Shown here: piece after piece, positions 28,723-35,531 of the stretch | Position numbering within the stretch: the stretch's first letter is position 1 | How the letters are laid out: each line of letters opens with the position of its first letter | Assembly (NCBI GenBank): GCA_964501185.1 | Contig: CAZCRT010000007.1 | Location: 16,581 to 80,580 of the forward strand | Origin: an uncultured Bacteroidia bacterium | GTDB taxonomy: Bacteria > CAIWAD01 > BS150m-G50 | Length of the DNA: 64,000 nucleotides | Reading direction: 5' to 3' | The notes under the pieces: model-generated | Told to the model about the DNA's origin: nothing | Seen by the model: only the letters and a program-made list of their open reading frames with translations | The model's database searches: none | Translations under genes and position numbers: made by a program

Positions 28723-29277
28723 ATGGATTCAGAAAAATTAGTAGAAGTGAACATCGTTGAAGTTTCAATCGACAAAACCAACCAGTCCAGCATCGTAGTG
28801 TTGCGGGAAAAGGATGGTGACCGCTGGTTTCCAATCCATGTAGGTCCGATCGAAGCCCACACAATCACCTATATTCTCAGCGGCGCAACCTATACCCGGC
28901 CATTGACATTCGACACTATCGTCCACATTCTGGAAGCTCTGGGCGGTGTCGTAGTGCAGATCGTTATAACCGAGATGCGGGACAGCACCTTCTTCTCAAC
29001 TATCGAGCTGATTCGCGAAGATGGCGCCACAGTTCTGGTTGATGCCCGGCCCTCAGACGCAATCCCGCTGGCATTGAAACTGGGGCTCCCCATTCATGTC
29101 ACCCGGAAGGTTATTGATGAAATCGGACGTTCGGGTGAACCGGAAGTAATCGACCGGGATGAGAAGATCAGCGAGCTGAAAGCGCGGCTTAAGGTTGCTG
29201 TTGAAGCGGAACAATACGAGAAGGCTGCCCGTCTTCGAGACCTGATCAGCGAGTTGCAGAATGACCAGAATGACTGA
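28723..29277 (+). CDS. Bifunctional nuclease (DUF151) family protein with C-terminal UVR domain
   Basis: FPIHVGPIEA, RPLTFD, DARPSDAIPLA and AVEAEQYEKAARLRD. Confidence 0.9.
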   Translation: MDSEKLVEVNIVEVSIDKTNQSSIVVLREKDGDRWFPIHVGPIEAHTITYILSGATYTRPLTFDTIVHILEALGGVVVQIVITEMRDSTFFSTIELIREDGATVLVDARPSDAIPLALKLGLPIHVTRKVIDEIGRSGEPEVIDRDEKISELKARLKVAVEAEQYEKAARLRDLISELQNDQND

Positions 29278-29935
29278 CGGTATTCCGCGATTTCCAGTAA
29301 GCAAACTGCTGGAAGAACGGGAGCGATTCGCCTATCTGGGCTCACTCCTCGGCGGTATGATACACAACCTGAATAATCCCCTCAATGCAGTCATGGGTGT
29401 TTCGCAGCTAATGGAGTTGCGACTGCCTGATGATAAGGATATTCCCCGCCTGCTGAAATACATCGATGAACTGGCCAATCAACTGCGGGAGATAACCAGC
29501 AAGGTTCAATTTGAGGAACGGATGCCCCGCATTGACGATCTGCCAGCCTGGCTGGATCAGGAAATGCGGTTCTACCGCTGTCACCTCGGATTCAAGCATG
29601 GTGTTGAGGTGAAGCTGGAACTGGACGCCGGGCGCTTTCCGACCATAGATGTTCCCGGTTTGCCGGTGACGACATTTTTCTTCCGCTTCATAGAGTGGAT
29701 GAGCGGAGTGATTGATCACAAAAAGAAAGCGGAACTGGTTTTACGCACGACACCGGAACCGTCAGATCCGGTACTGCTGCTGGAGTTGCATCTTGTTCAG
29801 GCTGAAGCTGCGACAGCATCTACCCTGGTGGATCTGATTGATCTTCTGGCTGTGGATAATATCGAATGTCAACTTGATATCATCTCCGACACCGATCTTG
29901 CCTGGCAGCTGACTTTTCCCAGACCCCGGGCGTAG
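29270..29935 (+). CDS. Histidine-kinase-like protein with an intact H-box and a degenerate ATPase domain
   Basis: GGMIHNLNNPLNAV H-box. No recognisable N, G1, F or G2 boxes and no sensor domain. Start could be 29261 or 29270. Confidence 0.65.
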   Translation: MTDGIPRFPVSKLLEERERFAYLGSLLGGMIHNLNNPLNAVMGVSQLMELRLPDDKDIPRLLKYIDELANQLREITSKVQFEERMPRIDDLPAWLDQEMRFYRCHLGFKHGVEVKLELDAGRFPTIDVPGLPVTTFFFRFIEWMSGVIDHKKKAELVLRTTPEPSDPVLLLELHLVQAEAATASTLVDLIDLLAVDNIECQLDIISDTDLAWQLTFPRPRA

Positions 29936-30005
29936 TGAGCAGGAAGGCCAACAGCAGCGGCAGGTTCACAAAGAAACAAATCACCACATCCTGACTGGAG
30001 GAAAT

Positions 30006-30386
30006 ATGCCGGAAAACACAGAACAGATTCCGATAGAGGAAAAACGCAAACTGCTCTTTGTACAACTGTTGACTTCATTTCAGCAGGCTGCCTGGACCGG
30101 TCTGGGTAAGATTCAGGGTCCCGATGGTAAAATTGCAATCGATCTGGATGCAGCTTCAGCTTATATCGACCTGCTGGACATGTTGCGTGACCTGACCCAG
30201 GGTAATCTTGAAGATGAACTCTCCAGATTGCTGGAAAAGATGGTCGGTGATCTGAAACTCAACTACCTGGAAGAAAGCAGCAAGAAGAGATCTGCTGATG
30301 AGGAAACCACAGAAGCAGCCGCAGAGGAAGACAATGATCCTCCTGCTGATGAGGGTGCAACAGAAGATCAGACAAAAAGTGAATAG
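30006..30386 (+). CDS. DUF1844 family protein
   Basis: AWTGLGKIQGP...DLDAASAYIDLLDML..LTQGNL...L..LKLNY. Confidence 0.85.
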   Translation: MPENTEQIPIEEKRKLLFVQLLTSFQQAAWTGLGKIQGPDGKIAIDLDAASAYIDLLDMLRDLTQGNLEDELSRLLEKMVGDLKLNYLEESSKKRSADEETTEAAAEEDNDPPADEGATEDQTKSE

Positions 30387-30418
30387 CAGGGTTCTCCCAC
30401 AGCCTGCAAATAAACAGC

Positions 30419-30832
30419 GTGACTTCAACTGTATCCAGCCGTCTGCGACGTGAACTGAAGACCCTGACAATAATGATCAGGCGCTATTGTAATCATCATC
30501 ATGAGCATGACGATGGTGTATCCGGCCTCTGCCCGGAATGTGAGACATTACAGTATTACGCATTACAACGGATCGAGAAGTGCCCCTTCCTCAAACAGGA
30601 AAAACCCGAAGATAATCAGGTAGCGCTTCAGCATGAGCCATCGCAAAATAACAAGACCTGCTTTGAAGTTGAGAAACCACCCTGTGATCAGTGCCCTGTC
30701 CACTGTTATCGGCCGGAAATGCGGGAACAGATCAGGCAGGTAATGAGGTGGACCGGACCCCGGATGTTGTGGCGGCATCCCTGGCTGACACTGTTCCACC
30801 TCTGGAATGGTAGACGTTATAAGGGACAGTAG
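30419..30832 (+). CDS. YgbA / nitrous-oxide-stimulated promoter family protein
   Basis: RELKTL..MI..YC, CPECE.L..YA..RIEKCP, CPVHCY, IRQVMRWTGPRML. Confidence 0.88.
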   Translation: MTSTVSSRLRRELKTLTIMIRRYCNHHHEHDDGVSGLCPECETLQYYALQRIEKCPFLKQEKPEDNQVALQHEPSQNNKTCFEVEKPPCDQCPVHCYRPEMREQIRQVMRWTGPRMLWRHPWLTLFHLWNGRRYKGQ

Positions 30833-30948: not shown

Positions 30949-31100
30949 TAATGGAGTTGAGACAGGCGACCGATCGCTACAGGAGGTAAAAACTCAAGTG
31001 CGTGATAACTTTCTCTTATTCTGCTAATGGAGTTGAGACAGGCGACCGATCGCTACAGGAGGTAAAAACTCAAGTGCGTGATAACTTTCTCTTATTCTGC
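30949..31100. repeat. Perfect 2 x 76-bp tandem duplication
   Basis: 30949-31024 is identical to 31025-31100 (TAATGGAGTTGAGACAGG...CTTATTCTGC). Confidence 0.95.
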
Positions 31101-31158: not shown

Positions 31159-31187
31159 TTGACAAACAAACAGATCTCAGATAAATT
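31159..31187 (+). promoter_or_regulatory. Putative sigma70 promoter
   Basis: TTGACA (31159-31164), 17-bp spacer, TAAATT (31182-31187). Confidence 0.55.
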
Positions 31188-31207: not shown

Positions 31208-32869
31208 TTGATCTGTTCACCACTGTTGAATAAAACCGACAACCAAGAGCTGGAATTGAAGTATAAAGTTCGCAAAAACAAGACAAAAGAAACCGATATT
31301 GATCTGTCCTTCCTGCAGCAGGAGATTAATACCGACCTGCTGGAACAGCTTTACGACATTGTAGCCACTCATCCAGAACATATCGCTGTTCGCTGGCATG
31401 AAGAACAGCTGAGCTACGGTATGCTGATGCAGCGAGTGGAACAAACAGCTCTGAAGCTGCGCGAGCAGGGTGTTAACGAACAATCACGTTTACTACTGTT
31501 TCACCCGAACAGTATTGAATATGTTATCCTGTTACTGGCCGGCCTAACTACCGGGGCAGTGTTAATTCCAATCGACTATAAACTGACCCCCGATCTGCTT
31601 CAGCGTGTTATTCATGAAGCAGCACCCAATTTTGCCAGTTATCCGGCTCACATGGCAGATCGCATCCGCCGTGAAGAGCACATGTTTGCCAGAGACATCC
31701 GTTTCCTGATATCTGATGCTGATGGAGAGCCGGGACCGCAGGCAACCCACATCAATACAGACTTTCTGGAGCAGGCTGCGCCCCGGGTAAATCAGCATGT
31801 TCAAACCCGTATTGTGTATTTCTATCGCAACCAGCGTGGCAGGATGATCGGTGCGGAGTTCCGGGTGAATAAGCTGGTATCGCAGGCTCACAAAGTGCGT
31901 CGCCGGTTTTCGATCTTCAAGTCAGATCACCTGCTCTGTCAGATGTCGCTGGCACATTACGTAGTGCTTTCCAATATGCTGTTTCCATCCCTGCTTTCCT
32001 CAGCCACTCTGCTATTGCTGGACCGTGAAGAGGATGACAACCGGGTGGATGAGATCATCGAGCGCTACAGACCACACCTGATGGTCAATACGCGCAAGTA
32101 CTATTACATTTTGCTCAAGCATTTACGTGATAGCGGTCGCAAACACAAAATCGTGAATTGTGTCATGATTTACGATGGCACCAGACTGGACTGGATGGAG
32201 GAATTTGAGGAGCAATTCAGAGCGCATCTGCTTCCGGGCCTCGCCTCCCCTTTGATTGCCGGTTTTGTAACACTGACCCTGCCTTTTCTCTGCCGGGTGG
32301 AGGGTTCCGTCGGGACACCGATGATCGGGATCGAGTACCATATCATTAACAGGGATGGAGAAGTACTACCTGCCGGGGAGTGGGGAGAACTGGTGATTGA
32401 TTCACCCTACGGACTGGATAATTTCTACAACAATACGGACCTCCAGTTCGAGAAGGCTGTTGAAGACTACTATCGTACGCATCAGATGGCCCGGCAGGAT
32501 GCCGGTGGTTATCTTTACCTGGCAGATGAAGTACAGGATGTTATCCGGATGCGTGGATTCGATATCTCTCCTCTTGAAATAGAGGAGGAATTGATGAAGC
32601 TGCCTGGTGTGGATGATGCTGTTGCCACAAATGGATTTACCCGTCGTAATGAGACGATTATTGCTTTCGTGAAGCTGGAGGAAGGGTCACAGCTTGCCAG
32701 CGATGAGGTTCTCCACGAGGCCTGTCAGGCAATGCCCGGCTATCTGCATCCGGAACAGGTTCTGCTGGTTGAAGAGATCCCGTACAATAACGAAGATCGC
32801 AAGATGCGTCTCGAATTGAAGAATAGAATGGAAAATAAGATAACAGGAGGTTCAAGTGAGTCAGTTTAA
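31208..32869 (+). CDS. Class I adenylate-forming (AMP-binding, acyl-CoA synthetase-like) protein with degenerate catalytic motifs
   Basis: The fold is recognisable (LSYGML..RV..A, GAVLIPID, SVGTPMIG, GELVI, GYLYL..DVI..RG..ISPLEIEEEL), but the P-loop and TGD motifs are absent. The start is uncertain. Confidence 0.75.
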   Translation: MICSPLLNKTDNQELELKYKVRKNKTKETDIDLSFLQQEINTDLLEQLYDIVATHPEHIAVRWHEEQLSYGMLMQRVEQTALKLREQGVNEQSRLLLFHPNSIEYVILLLAGLTTGAVLIPIDYKLTPDLLQRVIHEAAPNFASYPAHMADRIRREEHMFARDIRFLISDADGEPGPQATHINTDFLEQAAPRVNQHVQTRIVYFYRNQRGRMIGAEFRVNKLVSQAHKVRRRFSIFKSDHLLCQMSLAHYVVLSNMLFPSLLSSATLLLLDREEDDNRVDEIIERYRPHLMVNTRKYYYILLKHLRDSGRKHKIVNCVMIYDGTRLDWMEEFEEQFRAHLLPGLASPLIAGFVTLTLPFLCRVEGSVGTPMIGIEYHIINRDGEVLPAGEWGELVIDSPYGLDNFYNNTDLQFEKAVEDYYRTHQMARQDAGGYLYLADEVQDVIRMRGFDISPLEIEEELMKLPGVDDAVATNGFTRRNETIIAFVKLEEGSQLASDEVLHEACQAMPGYLHPEQVLLVEEIPYNNEDRKMRLELKNRMENKITGGSSESV

Positions 32870-34940
32870 ACCAGAGGATATCCGCAATGTGGTTGTTATA
32901 GGCCACGAAGGAAGTGGCAAAACCATGTTGACAGAAGCATTCCTCAGGAGTATGGGTGAAATCATCCGTATGGGGTCGATCGAGGATGGCTCAACCGTTT
33001 GTGATCATAATCAGGAAGAGATAGACCGCACGAAATCGATCAGTCTGGCGCTCTGTCAGGGACAGCACAAGGGTAAGAAGATCAACCTGCTGGATACACC
33101 CGGATTCGCTGAGTTTTCCGGAGAGGTGCTGACCGGTGTCCGTGTGGCTGATTCCGCTGTAGTAACTGTTTCCGCACAGAACGGCGTAGAAGTCGGTACG
33201 GAACTTTTCTGGGAGCAGGCCAGGCAGCGTGATCTTTCGGGACTGTTTGTGATCAATCATCTCGATAAAGAACAGGCGAATTTTGACAGTACTCTGGACG
33301 AGCTGAAGCAGGTTTTCGGCAGCGCCATTCTCCCATTACAGATTCCGGTGAACGCTGGCAGTGAGAACTTTGACACAGTTATTGACCTCGGGCTTATGAA
33401 GCAGCTCAAGTTTACCACTGATGGTTCCGGAGATTACACAGAGGAAGAACTCAGTGGTGATGCCAGGTCCCAGGCTGACGAGATGCTGGAGGCAATGACT
33501 GAAACTGTCGCCGAAAGTGATGACGAACTACTCGAAAAATTCTTTGAAGCCGGCGAGCTGACTCCTGACGAATTCAAGGCCGGTCTGGAAAAGGGAATTG
33601 CGACTGGCAAGATTTACCCGGTTCTCTGTTCTGTAGCTTCCCGTAATCGCGGCCCCCGTCGGATTCTGGACATGCTGGCGGATTACTTCCCCGCGCCCAG
33701 CGACCGTCCCGGTGAAGTTGTGAAATCAGGGGACAGCGAGAAAGAGATCAGTTGTGCACCCGATGGTGAGCTTTCCGCGATGGTTTTCAAGACTGTTGTG
33801 GAAAAGCATGTGGGTGAGCTTTCCTTTTTCCGTGTTTTTAGTGGTAAGGCTACTACAGGTGCTGAAGTCAAGAATGTTTCCCAGAAGGGAGATACTACCA
33901 AATTTGGGCAGCTGTTTTATCCTGCCGGTAAGAATCGCAAGGATACCGATGCTGTTATCGCCGGTGATATCGGTGTGACTGTCAAGATGAAAAGTTGCCG
34001 CACAGGTGATTCACTGATTCCGAAGAGTGGGAACTATACCTTTGCACCGGTGAATTTCCCTGAAACGGTACACGATGAAGCGATCAAGGCTGTAACCGAA
34101 GGTGATGAGGAAAAGATATCCACCGGCCTGCAGGCGCTGATGGCTGAGGATCCATCCTTCCAGGTTATTCACAGTGCCGAGCTGAATCAGATTATCATTG
34201 CCGGGCAGGGTGAGATGCAGCTGCAGATTCTGGTCGAGAAGCTGAAGACCCGTTATGGAGTTGAAGCCAGGCTCAGCGAACCGGGTGTTCCATTCCGTGA
34301 AACAATTACCGCCAGGGCTGATGAGAAATACAGGCATAAAAAGCAGTCCGGTGGCGCCGGGCAGTTTGCTGAGGTCTGGATGCGGATCGAGCCGATGGAA
34401 CGTGGCGGTGATTTTGAATTCGCCTCCGAAGTCGTCGGTGGTAATATCTCCCAGCCTTTCATCCCCGCTATCGAGAAGGGTATCAAGCAGGTCATGAACC
34501 AGGGTATCGTTTCCGGTCACAAAGTTGTTGATGTAAAAGCAATTGTCTACGACGGTAAGGAACACCCGGTGGACAGTAAGGATATCGCTTTCCAGATTGC
34601 CGGCCGGGAGGTTTTCAAGATGGCAGTCAAGAAGGCCAAACCGATCCTGCTGGAGCCGATCTATGATATCCGGGTCAAGGTGCCGGAAGACTACATGGGT
34701 GATGTGATGGGCGACATTTCCTCCCGCCGTGGAAAAATCCAGGGTATGGAAGCGGAAGGACGCTATCAGGTCATCAATGCCAAAGTGCCGCTGGCAGACC
34801 TGTATCGCTACTGCACACACCTGCGTTCAATGACACAGGGGCGCGGTATTTTCTCCCGTACTTTCTCACACTATGAGAAGATGCCGGAAGAAGAGGCGAA
34901 GAAGGTTGTCGCCGCCTATGAATCCAGCCAGGTGGAGTAG
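32856..34940 (+). CDS. fusA: Elongation factor G-like protein (EF-G2 type paralog)
   Basis: 694 aa with the EF-G domain layout (KKQSGGAGQFA, PILLEP, DISSRRG, LRSMTQGRG). G-motifs are variant: GHEGSGKT, DTPGF, NHLD. Confidence 0.9.
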   Translation: MSQFKPEDIRNVVVIGHEGSGKTMLTEAFLRSMGEIIRMGSIEDGSTVCDHNQEEIDRTKSISLALCQGQHKGKKINLLDTPGFAEFSGEVLTGVRVADSAVVTVSAQNGVEVGTELFWEQARQRDLSGLFVINHLDKEQANFDSTLDELKQVFGSAILPLQIPVNAGSENFDTVIDLGLMKQLKFTTDGSGDYTEEELSGDARSQADEMLEAMTETVAESDDELLEKFFEAGELTPDEFKAGLEKGIATGKIYPVLCSVASRNRGPRRILDMLADYFPAPSDRPGEVVKSGDSEKEISCAPDGELSAMVFKTVVEKHVGELSFFRVFSGKATTGAEVKNVSQKGDTTKFGQLFYPAGKNRKDTDAVIAGDIGVTVKMKSCRTGDSLIPKSGNYTFAPVNFPETVHDEAIKAVTEGDEEKISTGLQALMAEDPSFQVIHSAELNQIIIAGQGEMQLQILVEKLKTRYGVEARLSEPGVPFRETITARADEKYRHKKQSGGAGQFAEVWMRIEPMERGGDFEFASEVVGGNISQPFIPAIEKGIKQVMNQGIVSGHKVVDVKAIVYDGKEHPVDSKDIAFQIAGREVFKMAVKKAKPILLEPIYDIRVKVPEDYMGDVMGDISSRRGKIQGMEAEGRYQVINAKVPLADLYRYCTHLRSMTQGRGIFSRTFSHYEKMPEEEAKKVVAAYESSQVE

Positions 34941-34969
34941 TCCGGCTGACCGATTGAGAAGAGAAACGG

Positions 34970-35003
34970 GCCGGACTGCATCATGTATGTGGTCCGGCTT
35001 TTT
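34970..35003 (+). terminator. Putative Rho-independent terminator
   Basis: GCCGGACTGCAT / ATGTGGTCCGGC stem with G-U pairs, followed by TTTTT. Confidence 0.7.
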
Positions 35004-35030: not shown

Positions 35031-35531
35031 ATGGATAAGCTCTGGGCCCCCTGGCGCATGCAGTATATCGAGCAGATTGATGATTCGGAGGGGGAGGGGT
35101 GTATCTTCTGCAGTAAACCCGGGCAGAAGAATGACCGGGAAAACCTGCTGCTTCACCGCTCTGAGCACGCCTATGTGTTGATGAATCTCTTTCCTTACAA
35201 TAACGGTCACCTGCTGATCATCCCCTTCCATCATAGCGGTGACCTGCTGGATTGCAAACCGGAGGTTCTGCAAAACTGTCAGGAGCTGCTGCAGCTCAGC
35301 ATGCGTGTTCTGAATGCAGCCTGGCAACCACAGGGTTTCAACATAGGGCTGAATCAGGGACGCTGTGCCGGTGCGGGTATAGATCAACACCTCCATTATC
35401 ACATTGTGCCACGTTGGTCAGGTGACACCAATTTCATGCCGCTTCTGGGTGAGACGAAGGTCATCTCTCATGAACTGGGAAAATCCTGGGATAAGCTGCA
35501 GCCACTGTTTGAAGAGTATAGCAGGCTATGA
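35031..35531 (+). CDS. HIT family hydrolase (Ap4A phosphorylase-like)
   Basis: LWAPWR..YI, CIFC, NLFPYNNGH, HLHYHIVPRW.GD. RBS AGGAG. Confidence 0.92.
   Translation: MDKLWAPWRMQYIEQIDDSEGEGCIFCSKPGQKNDRENLLLHRSEHAYVLMNLFPYNNGHLLIIPFHHSGDLLDCKPEVLQNCQELLQLSMRVLNAAWQPQGFNIGLNQGRCAGAGIDQHLHYHIVPRWSGDTNFMPLLGETKVISHELGKSWDKLQPLFEEYSRL

Follow-up and report, generated by a model that had tools for sequence, protein, structure and literature searches.

A conserved acyl-CoA-synthetase-like protein with replaced ATP-contacting motifs is encoded in an overlapping gene pair with an EF-G2 paralog in a small uncultured bacterial phylum

The DNA analysed here, called the window throughout, is a stretch of 64,000 nt from contig CAZCRT010000007.1 (assembly GCA_964501185.1) of an uncultured Bacteroidia bacterium, and all coordinates are window positions. 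The locus of interest consists of a gene for an acyl-CoA-synthetase-like member of the ANL superfamily that lacks the catalytic motifs (31208..32869), followed by an EF-G2-type paralog of elongation factor G (32856..34940) and a HIT-family gene of the Ap4A-phosphorylase/ATP-adenylyltransferase-like type (35031..35531). The three genes, the motifs within them and the operon signals around them are all read on the forward strand. An earlier note, made from the letters of this DNA and a list of its open reading frames (ORFs), had described the first gene as full length, and the longest ORF does run for 553 codons from TTG 31208 with zero internal stops. The start, however, more likely lies further downstream. 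Since the ortholog L025 (88% identical) has an in-frame TAA immediately 5' of TTG-AAG-TAT-AAA, and since gene calls begin at LKYK or MKYK in three orthologs, the conserved start is TTG 31256, giving a protein of 537 aa.

The window protein belongs to the ANL superfamily by both homology and fold. It matches the Pfam families AMP-binding (PF00501; 2e-33, 116.2 bits against a gathering threshold of 29.9) and AMP-binding_C (PF13193; 2.8e-6, 28.6 bits against 24.5), and among solved structures its closest relative is the feruloyl/fatty-acyl-CoA synthetase 8weu/8wev, which aligns over the full length with E = 3e-25. The AlphaFold2 model built from the family alignment has a mean predicted local distance difference test score of 74.9, with the lowest confidence at the A5 loop and in the pocket region, and retains the two-domain ANL architecture of a large N-terminal and a small hinged C-terminal domain. 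When this model was used in Foldseek, matches to 5bsw, 8wev and 4fuq were obtained with E values of about 1e-36, and the template modelling score to 1ult was 0.78. The best NCBIfam model, PRK06187 (long-chain-fatty-acid--CoA ligase), also covers the protein over its full length (residues 45-543), but the score of 174.6 bits is below the curated cutoff of 476. An ordinary fatty-acid CoA ligase is therefore ruled out, both by these sub-threshold family scores and by the loss of motifs described below.

The motifs were compared by aligning the window protein with 8weu and five canonical ANL proteins. The A3 motif (T/S)SG(T/S)TGxPKG, the loop that binds the ATP phosphates, has been replaced, and the alignments place the relic YFYRNQRGRMIG at 31817..31852 (residues 204-215) where YTSGTTGxPKG would stand. 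The window protein reads YRNQRGRMIG here and other family members read DREDHWRG, LTRDETYIFA or QNAQGYWQTA; the site is occupied by YFRMDREDHWRG in a second clade (f2) and by different sequences again in the most divergent members, P0028 and P0030, so that conservation across clades at the former P-loop is close to zero. The adenine loop, canonically GGAP, reads YDGTR. At A5 the relic PGLAS (32234..32248, residues 343-347) stands in place of (E)GYGxTE, whose aromatic residue contacts the adenine, with loss of the Mg-binding Glu and of the Thr, the aligned segments being EGYGxTE and LPGLASP, and the f2 clade has xG(F/Y)A. At A7 (YRTHQ, 32471..32485, residues 422-426) the ribose-binding Asp has become Gln, TGD being changed to THQ in the window and to THQ or (S/T)QQ in the family, with the Gln invariant family-wide as part of QMA. 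The family is most strongly conserved in the hinge/A8 block LADEVQDVIRMRGFDISPLEIE (32519..32584, residues 438-459), where DRxKD has become DEVQD; the pattern D-E-V-x-D is found family-wide, and the Glu in place of the A8 Arg is invariant. At A10 (D530-R531-K532, 32795..32803) GK is replaced by DR, so that an Arg is aligned to the catalytic Lys. The aligned residue is Arg in the window's genus, G009 and G007, and across the family it is R, F or I. Since the adjacent K532 is invariant in every family member, the A10 lysine cannot be counted as lost with certainty.

Five ATP-contacting elements (A3, the adenine loop, A5, A7 and A8) have thus been replaced and A10 has been altered, and judged by these motifs the protein would not qualify as an adenylate-forming enzyme. 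The earlier note had reported the replacements at A3, A5, A7 and A10. All four strings it quoted are present, but its register at A5 was off by one residue and its claim of a lost A10 lysine is weakened by K532; the changes in the adenine loop and at A8 come in addition. What the window protein has in common with PRK06187-type acyl-CoA synthetases (8weu/8wev, 4fuq, 5bsw, 1ult) is the fold, the length, the structural motifs A1, A2, A6 and A9 and the hinge, whereas A3, the adenine loop, A5, A7, A8 and the aligned A10 residue differ and the protein falls in a separate clade on a long stem.

A set of residues is held fixed by the family. Invariant positions are the A4 His (H250), the A6 GE (G393-E394), the hinge Asp (D440), the block G-F-x-(I/V)-S-P-L-E-(I/V)-E at A8, and K532. 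The signature shared by both clades comprises H250, LLLDR, HLLxGxA, LxLPxL, WGE and QMA, and further LADEVxDVI...GFx(I/V)SP(L/V)E(I/V)E, P.YL.P and IPY(D/N)(D/N)E..K.R.xL. Conservation peaks at residues 421-470 and 521-540. An N-terminal motif, D-(L/I)-x-F-L, is also conserved in the family; it sits in a region of low model confidence and could be a docking peptide. The replacement motifs themselves are invariant within the window's genus and conserved within clades, which is in keeping with a maintained protein rather than decay.

The family is small and its distribution is sharply bounded. A search of 5.8e9 proteins returned five close homologs with 69-100% identity, after which identities fell to about 22%, and a profile search of 1.84e9 representatives recovered only some seven single-domain members, the remaining high scores coming from nonribosomal peptide synthetase megasynthases that add up many A-domains. 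A metagenome scan contributed only five more loci. The phylum to which the window belongs is small and uncultured, and is represented in the genome collection by seven genera from two families, with 12 species-level genomes between them. The gene is present as a single copy in 11 of the 12, including all 11 genomes that are at least 90% complete; the sole genome without it is 67% complete and is missing EF-G2 as well. NCBI labels within this one phylum disagree (uncultured Bacteroidia or Bacteroidaceae, Acetofilamentum sp., Candidatus Delongbacteria and simply "bacterium"), and some of them are probably wrong.

The gene is under strong purifying selection. By the Nei-Gojobori method the ratio of nonsynonymous to synonymous substitution rates (dN/dS) was 0.057-0.127, the ratios being rough since dS is saturated in most pairs, and the closest pair gave 0.057 (pN 0.060, pS 0.575). 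For comparison, EF-G2 gave 0.035-0.071, the HIT gene about 0.06, PpiC 0.20-0.27 and YgbA 0.17-0.21. The family is uniformly acidic, with isoelectric points of 4.9-5.9. The missing catalytic motifs are what a decaying pseudogene, or a chance ORF, would also present. However, more than 20 orthologs are all free of stops, the closest pair has accumulated far fewer nonsynonymous than synonymous changes, and the gene is kept in single copy phylum-wide with residues that are invariant and specific to the family. The dN/dS values and this phylum-wide presence rule a pseudogene out, and we give it next to no weight. The view taken in the earlier note, of a maintained pseudo-enzyme rather than a decaying pseudogene, is supported by dN/dS values that lie in the range of EF-G2 and HIT and below those of PpiC and YgbA, and also by the retained adjacency with fusA2 described next.

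The EF-G-like ORF begins at GTG 32856 and the acyl-CoA-synthetase-like ORF stops at 32869, which confirms the overlap of 14 nt described before. At every locus examined, an EF-G2 paralog lies directly downstream on the same strand with its start overlapping or abutting the stop of the ANL-like gene. This survey covered the window, G001, G003-G011, the metagenome contigs and the most divergent members P0028 and P0030, so that the adjacency with fusA2 is kept in all 11 of the genomes with the gene and in the metagenome contigs as well. The overlaps measured across loci were 14, 20, 4, 16 and 1 nt. A GGAGG Shine-Dalgarno sequence for EF-G2 (32846..32850) lies within the C-terminal Gly-Gly codons of the ANL-like gene, 5 nt 5' of GTG 32856, and GGAGG is found 5-6 nt upstream of the EF-G2 start at all loci for which DNA sequence was read. 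In the window's genus, which has the 14-nt overlap, it is supplied by the last codons GGA-GGT (Gly-Gly). In the f2 clade the last codons are TGG-AGG (Trp-Arg) followed by TTGA, in which the TTG start overlaps the TGA stop (4 nt). The two clades thus reach the same coupling by two different sequence solutions, and the arrangement is that of a translationally coupled operon in which the Shine-Dalgarno sequence for EF-G2 is built into the 3' codons of the ANL-like gene. The pair is retained across a divergence of the ANL-like protein to about 30% identity. Since the flanking genes other than EF-G2 (HIT aside) are not common to the two clades, it is the pair that constitutes the conserved unit.

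A consensus scan located a promoter-like site, TTGACA-17-TAAATT (31159..31187; 10 of 12 matches), upstream of the pair. L025, L026 and L027 carry this block almost unchanged and the intergenic DNA flanking it is variable, so the operon appears to have its own conserved promoter-like site. The same kind of scan placed a terminator-like hairpin of 14 pairs with a T-run after the EF-G2 stop (34968..35000). The DNA upstream of the operon was compared with Rfam for a riboswitch or leader RNA that could point to a ligand, and no match was obtained. An exact 76-bp tandem duplication (30949-31100), with AGGAGGT in each unit, lies some 60 bp ahead of the promoter-like site. Its two copies occur only here in the genome, and the carrier stretch of about 290 nt is absent from L025, L026 and L027; the repeat was therefore rejected as a regulatory element of the operon.

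The downstream gene encodes an EF-G2-type protein, with G1 GHEGSGKT, switch I RTKSI, switch II DTPGF and G4 NHLD. It scores 592.8 bits on TIGR00484, under the cutoff of 659.4, and the canonical EF-G of this genome is a separate gene (G000:C21, 1081.8 bits), closely followed by an EF-Tu-like match. The window EF-G2 passes NCBIfam NF009381 (PRK12740.1-5) with 848.4 bits against a cutoff of 583, and does not reach the cutoff of 1000 on the Bacteroidota EF-G2 model, on which it scores 692 bits. A G1 motif beginning with Gly and a divergent switch I agree with the description of EF-G2 in PMC12172202, where EF-G2-type proteins are presented as translocases of low activity whose G2 motif is divergent. 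In Bacteroides, EF-G2 is described as induced by carbon limitation and required for gut colonisation (PMC6989115).

The catalytic His of switch II is Phe in the window EF-G2 (DTPGF as opposed to DxPGH). Ten genomes of other phyla have EF-G2-type orthologs that carry DTPGF, DTPGY, DCPGY or DTPGD, and in nine of the ten no ANL gene lies upstream, the tenth being G013. Loss of this His is thus a trait of the whole NF009381-type subfamily, with F, Y or D in its place at the EF-G2 loci of other phyla (L035-L044), and the change from His to Phe was ruled out as a trait of ANL coupling, given that all ten outside orthologs, the ANL-adjacent copy of G013 included, are without it. The ANL-coupled EF-G2 proteins have six clade-specific signature positions, two of them in the nucleotide pocket (P-loop Glu18 and switch-I Lys60), and no clade-specific insert was seen in them. 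As candidate docking-site signatures the six positions were set aside, since positions drawn from a single clade count for little.

The HIT gene is a recurrent downstream neighbour of EF-G2. Its product is nearest to Ap4A phosphorylase (3ano/3wo5, E about 2e-31) and scores 139 bits on the ATP adenylyltransferase model, for which the cutoff is 290. The longest ORF would take ATG 34983 as its start, which falls within the terminator-like hairpin; the conserved start (MDKLWAPWR) lies at 35031, in agreement with ortholog gene calls of 164-166 aa. HIT is also found downstream of EF-G2 in the f2 loci, P0028, G013, P0174, P0175, P0178, P0217 and G027. In five of these lineages outside the window's phylum (G013, which carries the label "candidate division KSB1" and is the only member of its phylum in the genome collection, and P0174, P0175, P0178 and P0217, its nearest homologs) the order ANL, EF-G2, HIT is complete and the ANL is near-canonical. 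These loci (L034 on G013:C50, L045, L046, L048 and L051) share with the window the gene order, the strand, the His-less EF-G2 subfamily (here with DTPGY) and the Ap4A-phosphorylase-like HIT gene. Unlike the window protein, their ANLs keep A3 (as YTAG.TG..KG), A5 and A7, and their genes are 22-430 nt apart with no overlap, the gaps at the four homologs being 22-159 nt. The G013 ANL scores 329 bits on PF00501 and, with 481.6 bits, exceeds the PRK06187 cutoff of 476. The order was not seen at three further homologs of the G013 ANL (P0177, P0187 and P0219).

In this small survey of EF-G-linked ANLs, A10 Lys is replaced by Arg in four of the five linked near-canonical proteins as opposed to one of the three unlinked ones, a trend that is not sufficient for a marker of EF-G linkage. 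Among 120 close homologs of the G013 ANL (P0173-P0292), 24 carry the A10 Arg (GR), mostly together with the P-loop variant YTAG. These resemble a sizeable acyl-CoA-synthetase-like subclass without the adenylation lysine, and only some of them adjoin EF-G2. In the tree the members of the window family group together with 100% support; their stem is long and lies outside the clade of the linked ANLs.

We propose that the ANL-like protein is a maintained, non-adenylating and non-catalytic partner of EF-G2, acting as a regulator, adaptor or scaffold and made in fixed proportion to it, and we put the probability of this reading at about one half. The ancestor would have been an active acyl-CoA-synthetase-like enzyme, already linked to EF-G2 and the Ap4A-phosphorylase-like HIT gene, and the partnership with EF-G2 would have outlasted the loss of the chemistry. 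In the present-day phylum, translational coupling would yield the ANL-like protein and the His-less EF-G2 in stoichiometric amounts, the two would bind each other, and the ANL-like protein might then tune the starvation-type, GTP-hydrolysis-independent action of EF-G2 on the ribosome. The acidity of the family fits a protein-protein contact better than contact with rRNA. A more elaborate version of this proposal, which we hold only tentatively, is that the protein is a regulatory subunit dedicated to a GTPase-dead EF-G2 and present in stoichiometric amounts, within a starvation-translation module that includes the HIT protein; in other lineages the ANL would perhaps still be catalytic, providing an acyl-adenylate or dinucleotide signal or a modification, and in this phylum it would have become purely allosteric.

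Several points weigh against the proposed partnership. What the loci show directly is the genetics, and it is from the genetics that we infer both the binding of the two proteins and the function of one as partner of the other. The invariant K532 and H250 and the highly conserved A7-A8 block may be signs that a pocket, or some of the chemistry, has survived. In many phyla, EF-G2 orthologs function with no ANL gene next to them. The A10 Arg is not specific to EF-G linkage, since P0219 has the Arg without EF-G and P0174 is linked and has the Lys. Finally, an approximately unbiased test rejects joining the window family with the EF-G-linked canonical ANLs (p = 0.006), a result for which long-branch effects were flagged. 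The phylogeny therefore gives no support to a common ancestry of the two groups, and it is left to synteny to argue for one.

The invariant residues lead directly to the possibility that the protein is still an enzyme, with an altered and non-adenylating chemistry. It might be limited to the second half-reaction, starting from an acyl donor that is already activated, like the homolog of the platensimycin pathway discussed below, or it might attach an acyl group or another modification to EF-G2 or to a component of the ribosome, in which case the HIT enzyme would act on an adduct or a nucleotide by-product. H250, G393-E394, D440, the A8 block and K532 are invariant, conservation is maximal on those surfaces that in ANL enzymes are turned towards the active site, and related modules pair near-canonical ANLs with EF-G2 and HIT. 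The A7-A8 block, however, is the most conserved region in ordinary ANL proteins too, for structural reasons; the P-loop, the adenine loop, the A5 Glu and Thr, the A7 Asp and the A8 Arg are gone, and the P-loop segment varies even within the family. The operon, moreover, has no second, adenylating ANL gene that could serve as a source of acyl-adenylate, and we regard an altered enzyme as rather unlikely. Similarly improbable, in our estimation, is the ligand sensor raised in the earlier note, a small-molecule sensor whose relic acyl/CoA pocket would bind a fatty acid, an acyl-CoA or a nucleotide alarmone and signal to EF-G2. Such a role would make use of the retained hinged two-domain architecture and of the invariant A4 His, which lines the acyl pocket, and it would suit both the Ap4A-phosphorylase-like gene in the module and the published link of EF-G2 to carbon starvation (PMC6989115). 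A nucleotide ligand is unlikely since all classes of AMP/ATP-contacting residues are replaced, and the pocket and the A5 loop are where model confidence is poorest. Because all the nucleotide-contacting motifs are gone and the P-loop is not conserved within the family, a protein partner is favoured over a nucleotide sensor.

It is also conceivable that the ANL-like protein works outside translation altogether and has only the operon in common with fusA2. Proteins encoded in one operon do not have to interact, and the EF-G2 orthologs of other phyla that lack an ANL neighbour would be consistent with this. Yet the overlapping ORFs and the embedded Shine-Dalgarno sequence have been kept down to about 30% identity of the ANL-like protein while all other neighbours changed, the order ANL, EF-G2, HIT recurs in other lineages, and with its ATP motifs lost the protein is left with no ordinary metabolic role. 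We consider a function outside translation to be quite improbable, and the regulatory or scaffolding partnership with EF-G2 remains our preferred explanation.

The nearest precedent for a maintained ANL protein without adenylation is a homolog of acyl-CoA ligases from platensimycin and platencin biosynthesis (Wang et al. 2018, Nat Chem Biol 14:730, cited as reference 32 of PMC6594144), in which the adenylation half-reaction has reportedly been lost naturally. That protein is said to still bind the acyl-adenylate, to make the thioester and to work together with a second, adenylating ANL. In the window protein, by contrast, the nucleotide-binding motifs have been erased, the partner ANL is absent and the conserved partner is a translation factor. 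On the EF-G side the window gene resembles fusA2 of Bacteroides thetaiotaomicron (BT2167), as both encode a second EF-G outside the str operon. The Bacteroides EF-G2 has been cited as being without GTPase activity. It differs from the window EF-G2 in that no ANL partner has been described for it (the fusA2 locus itself was not examined here), and the window protein falls below the cutoff of the Bacteroidota model. Our literature search found no paper linking EF-G2 with an ANL protein or acyl-CoA synthetase, no paper on an ANL pseudoenzyme, and no description of the ANL-EF-G2-HIT gene neighbourhood.

If the more elaborate version of the proposal is correct, the window protein would be the first cofactor of protein nature to be described for any EF-G paralog, and translation would gain its first ANL pseudoenzyme. 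Paralogs of the EF-G2 type occur widely and are tied to starvation survival, and a coupled partner would be a concrete candidate for the control of a His-less factor or for its release from the ribosome. The family would also be a natural and clear-cut example of a pseudoenzyme derived from an adenylate-forming enzyme, and candidate intermediate states (A10 Lys to Arg beside EF-G2) may survive in other lineages. The neighbourhood as a whole hints at a tie between adenylate/dinucleotide chemistry and alternative translocation.

Some further features of these loci can be recorded. A YebC/TACO1-like gene starts just 3' of EF-G2 in G039 and G018, a position taken by the HIT gene in G027. Beyond HIT, L045 and L048 have a MazG gene in the opposite orientation and L051 has a cyclophilin-type peptidyl-prolyl isomerase, the equivalent position in the window being held by a parvulin-type isomerase. 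Upstream of the operon in the window, the block at 28723-30832 contains a BFN-nuclease/UVR gene, a HisKA-only protein overlapping it by 17 nt, DUF1844 and YgbA_NO. This block is conserved genus-wide, with the P0002 contig lacking YgbA.

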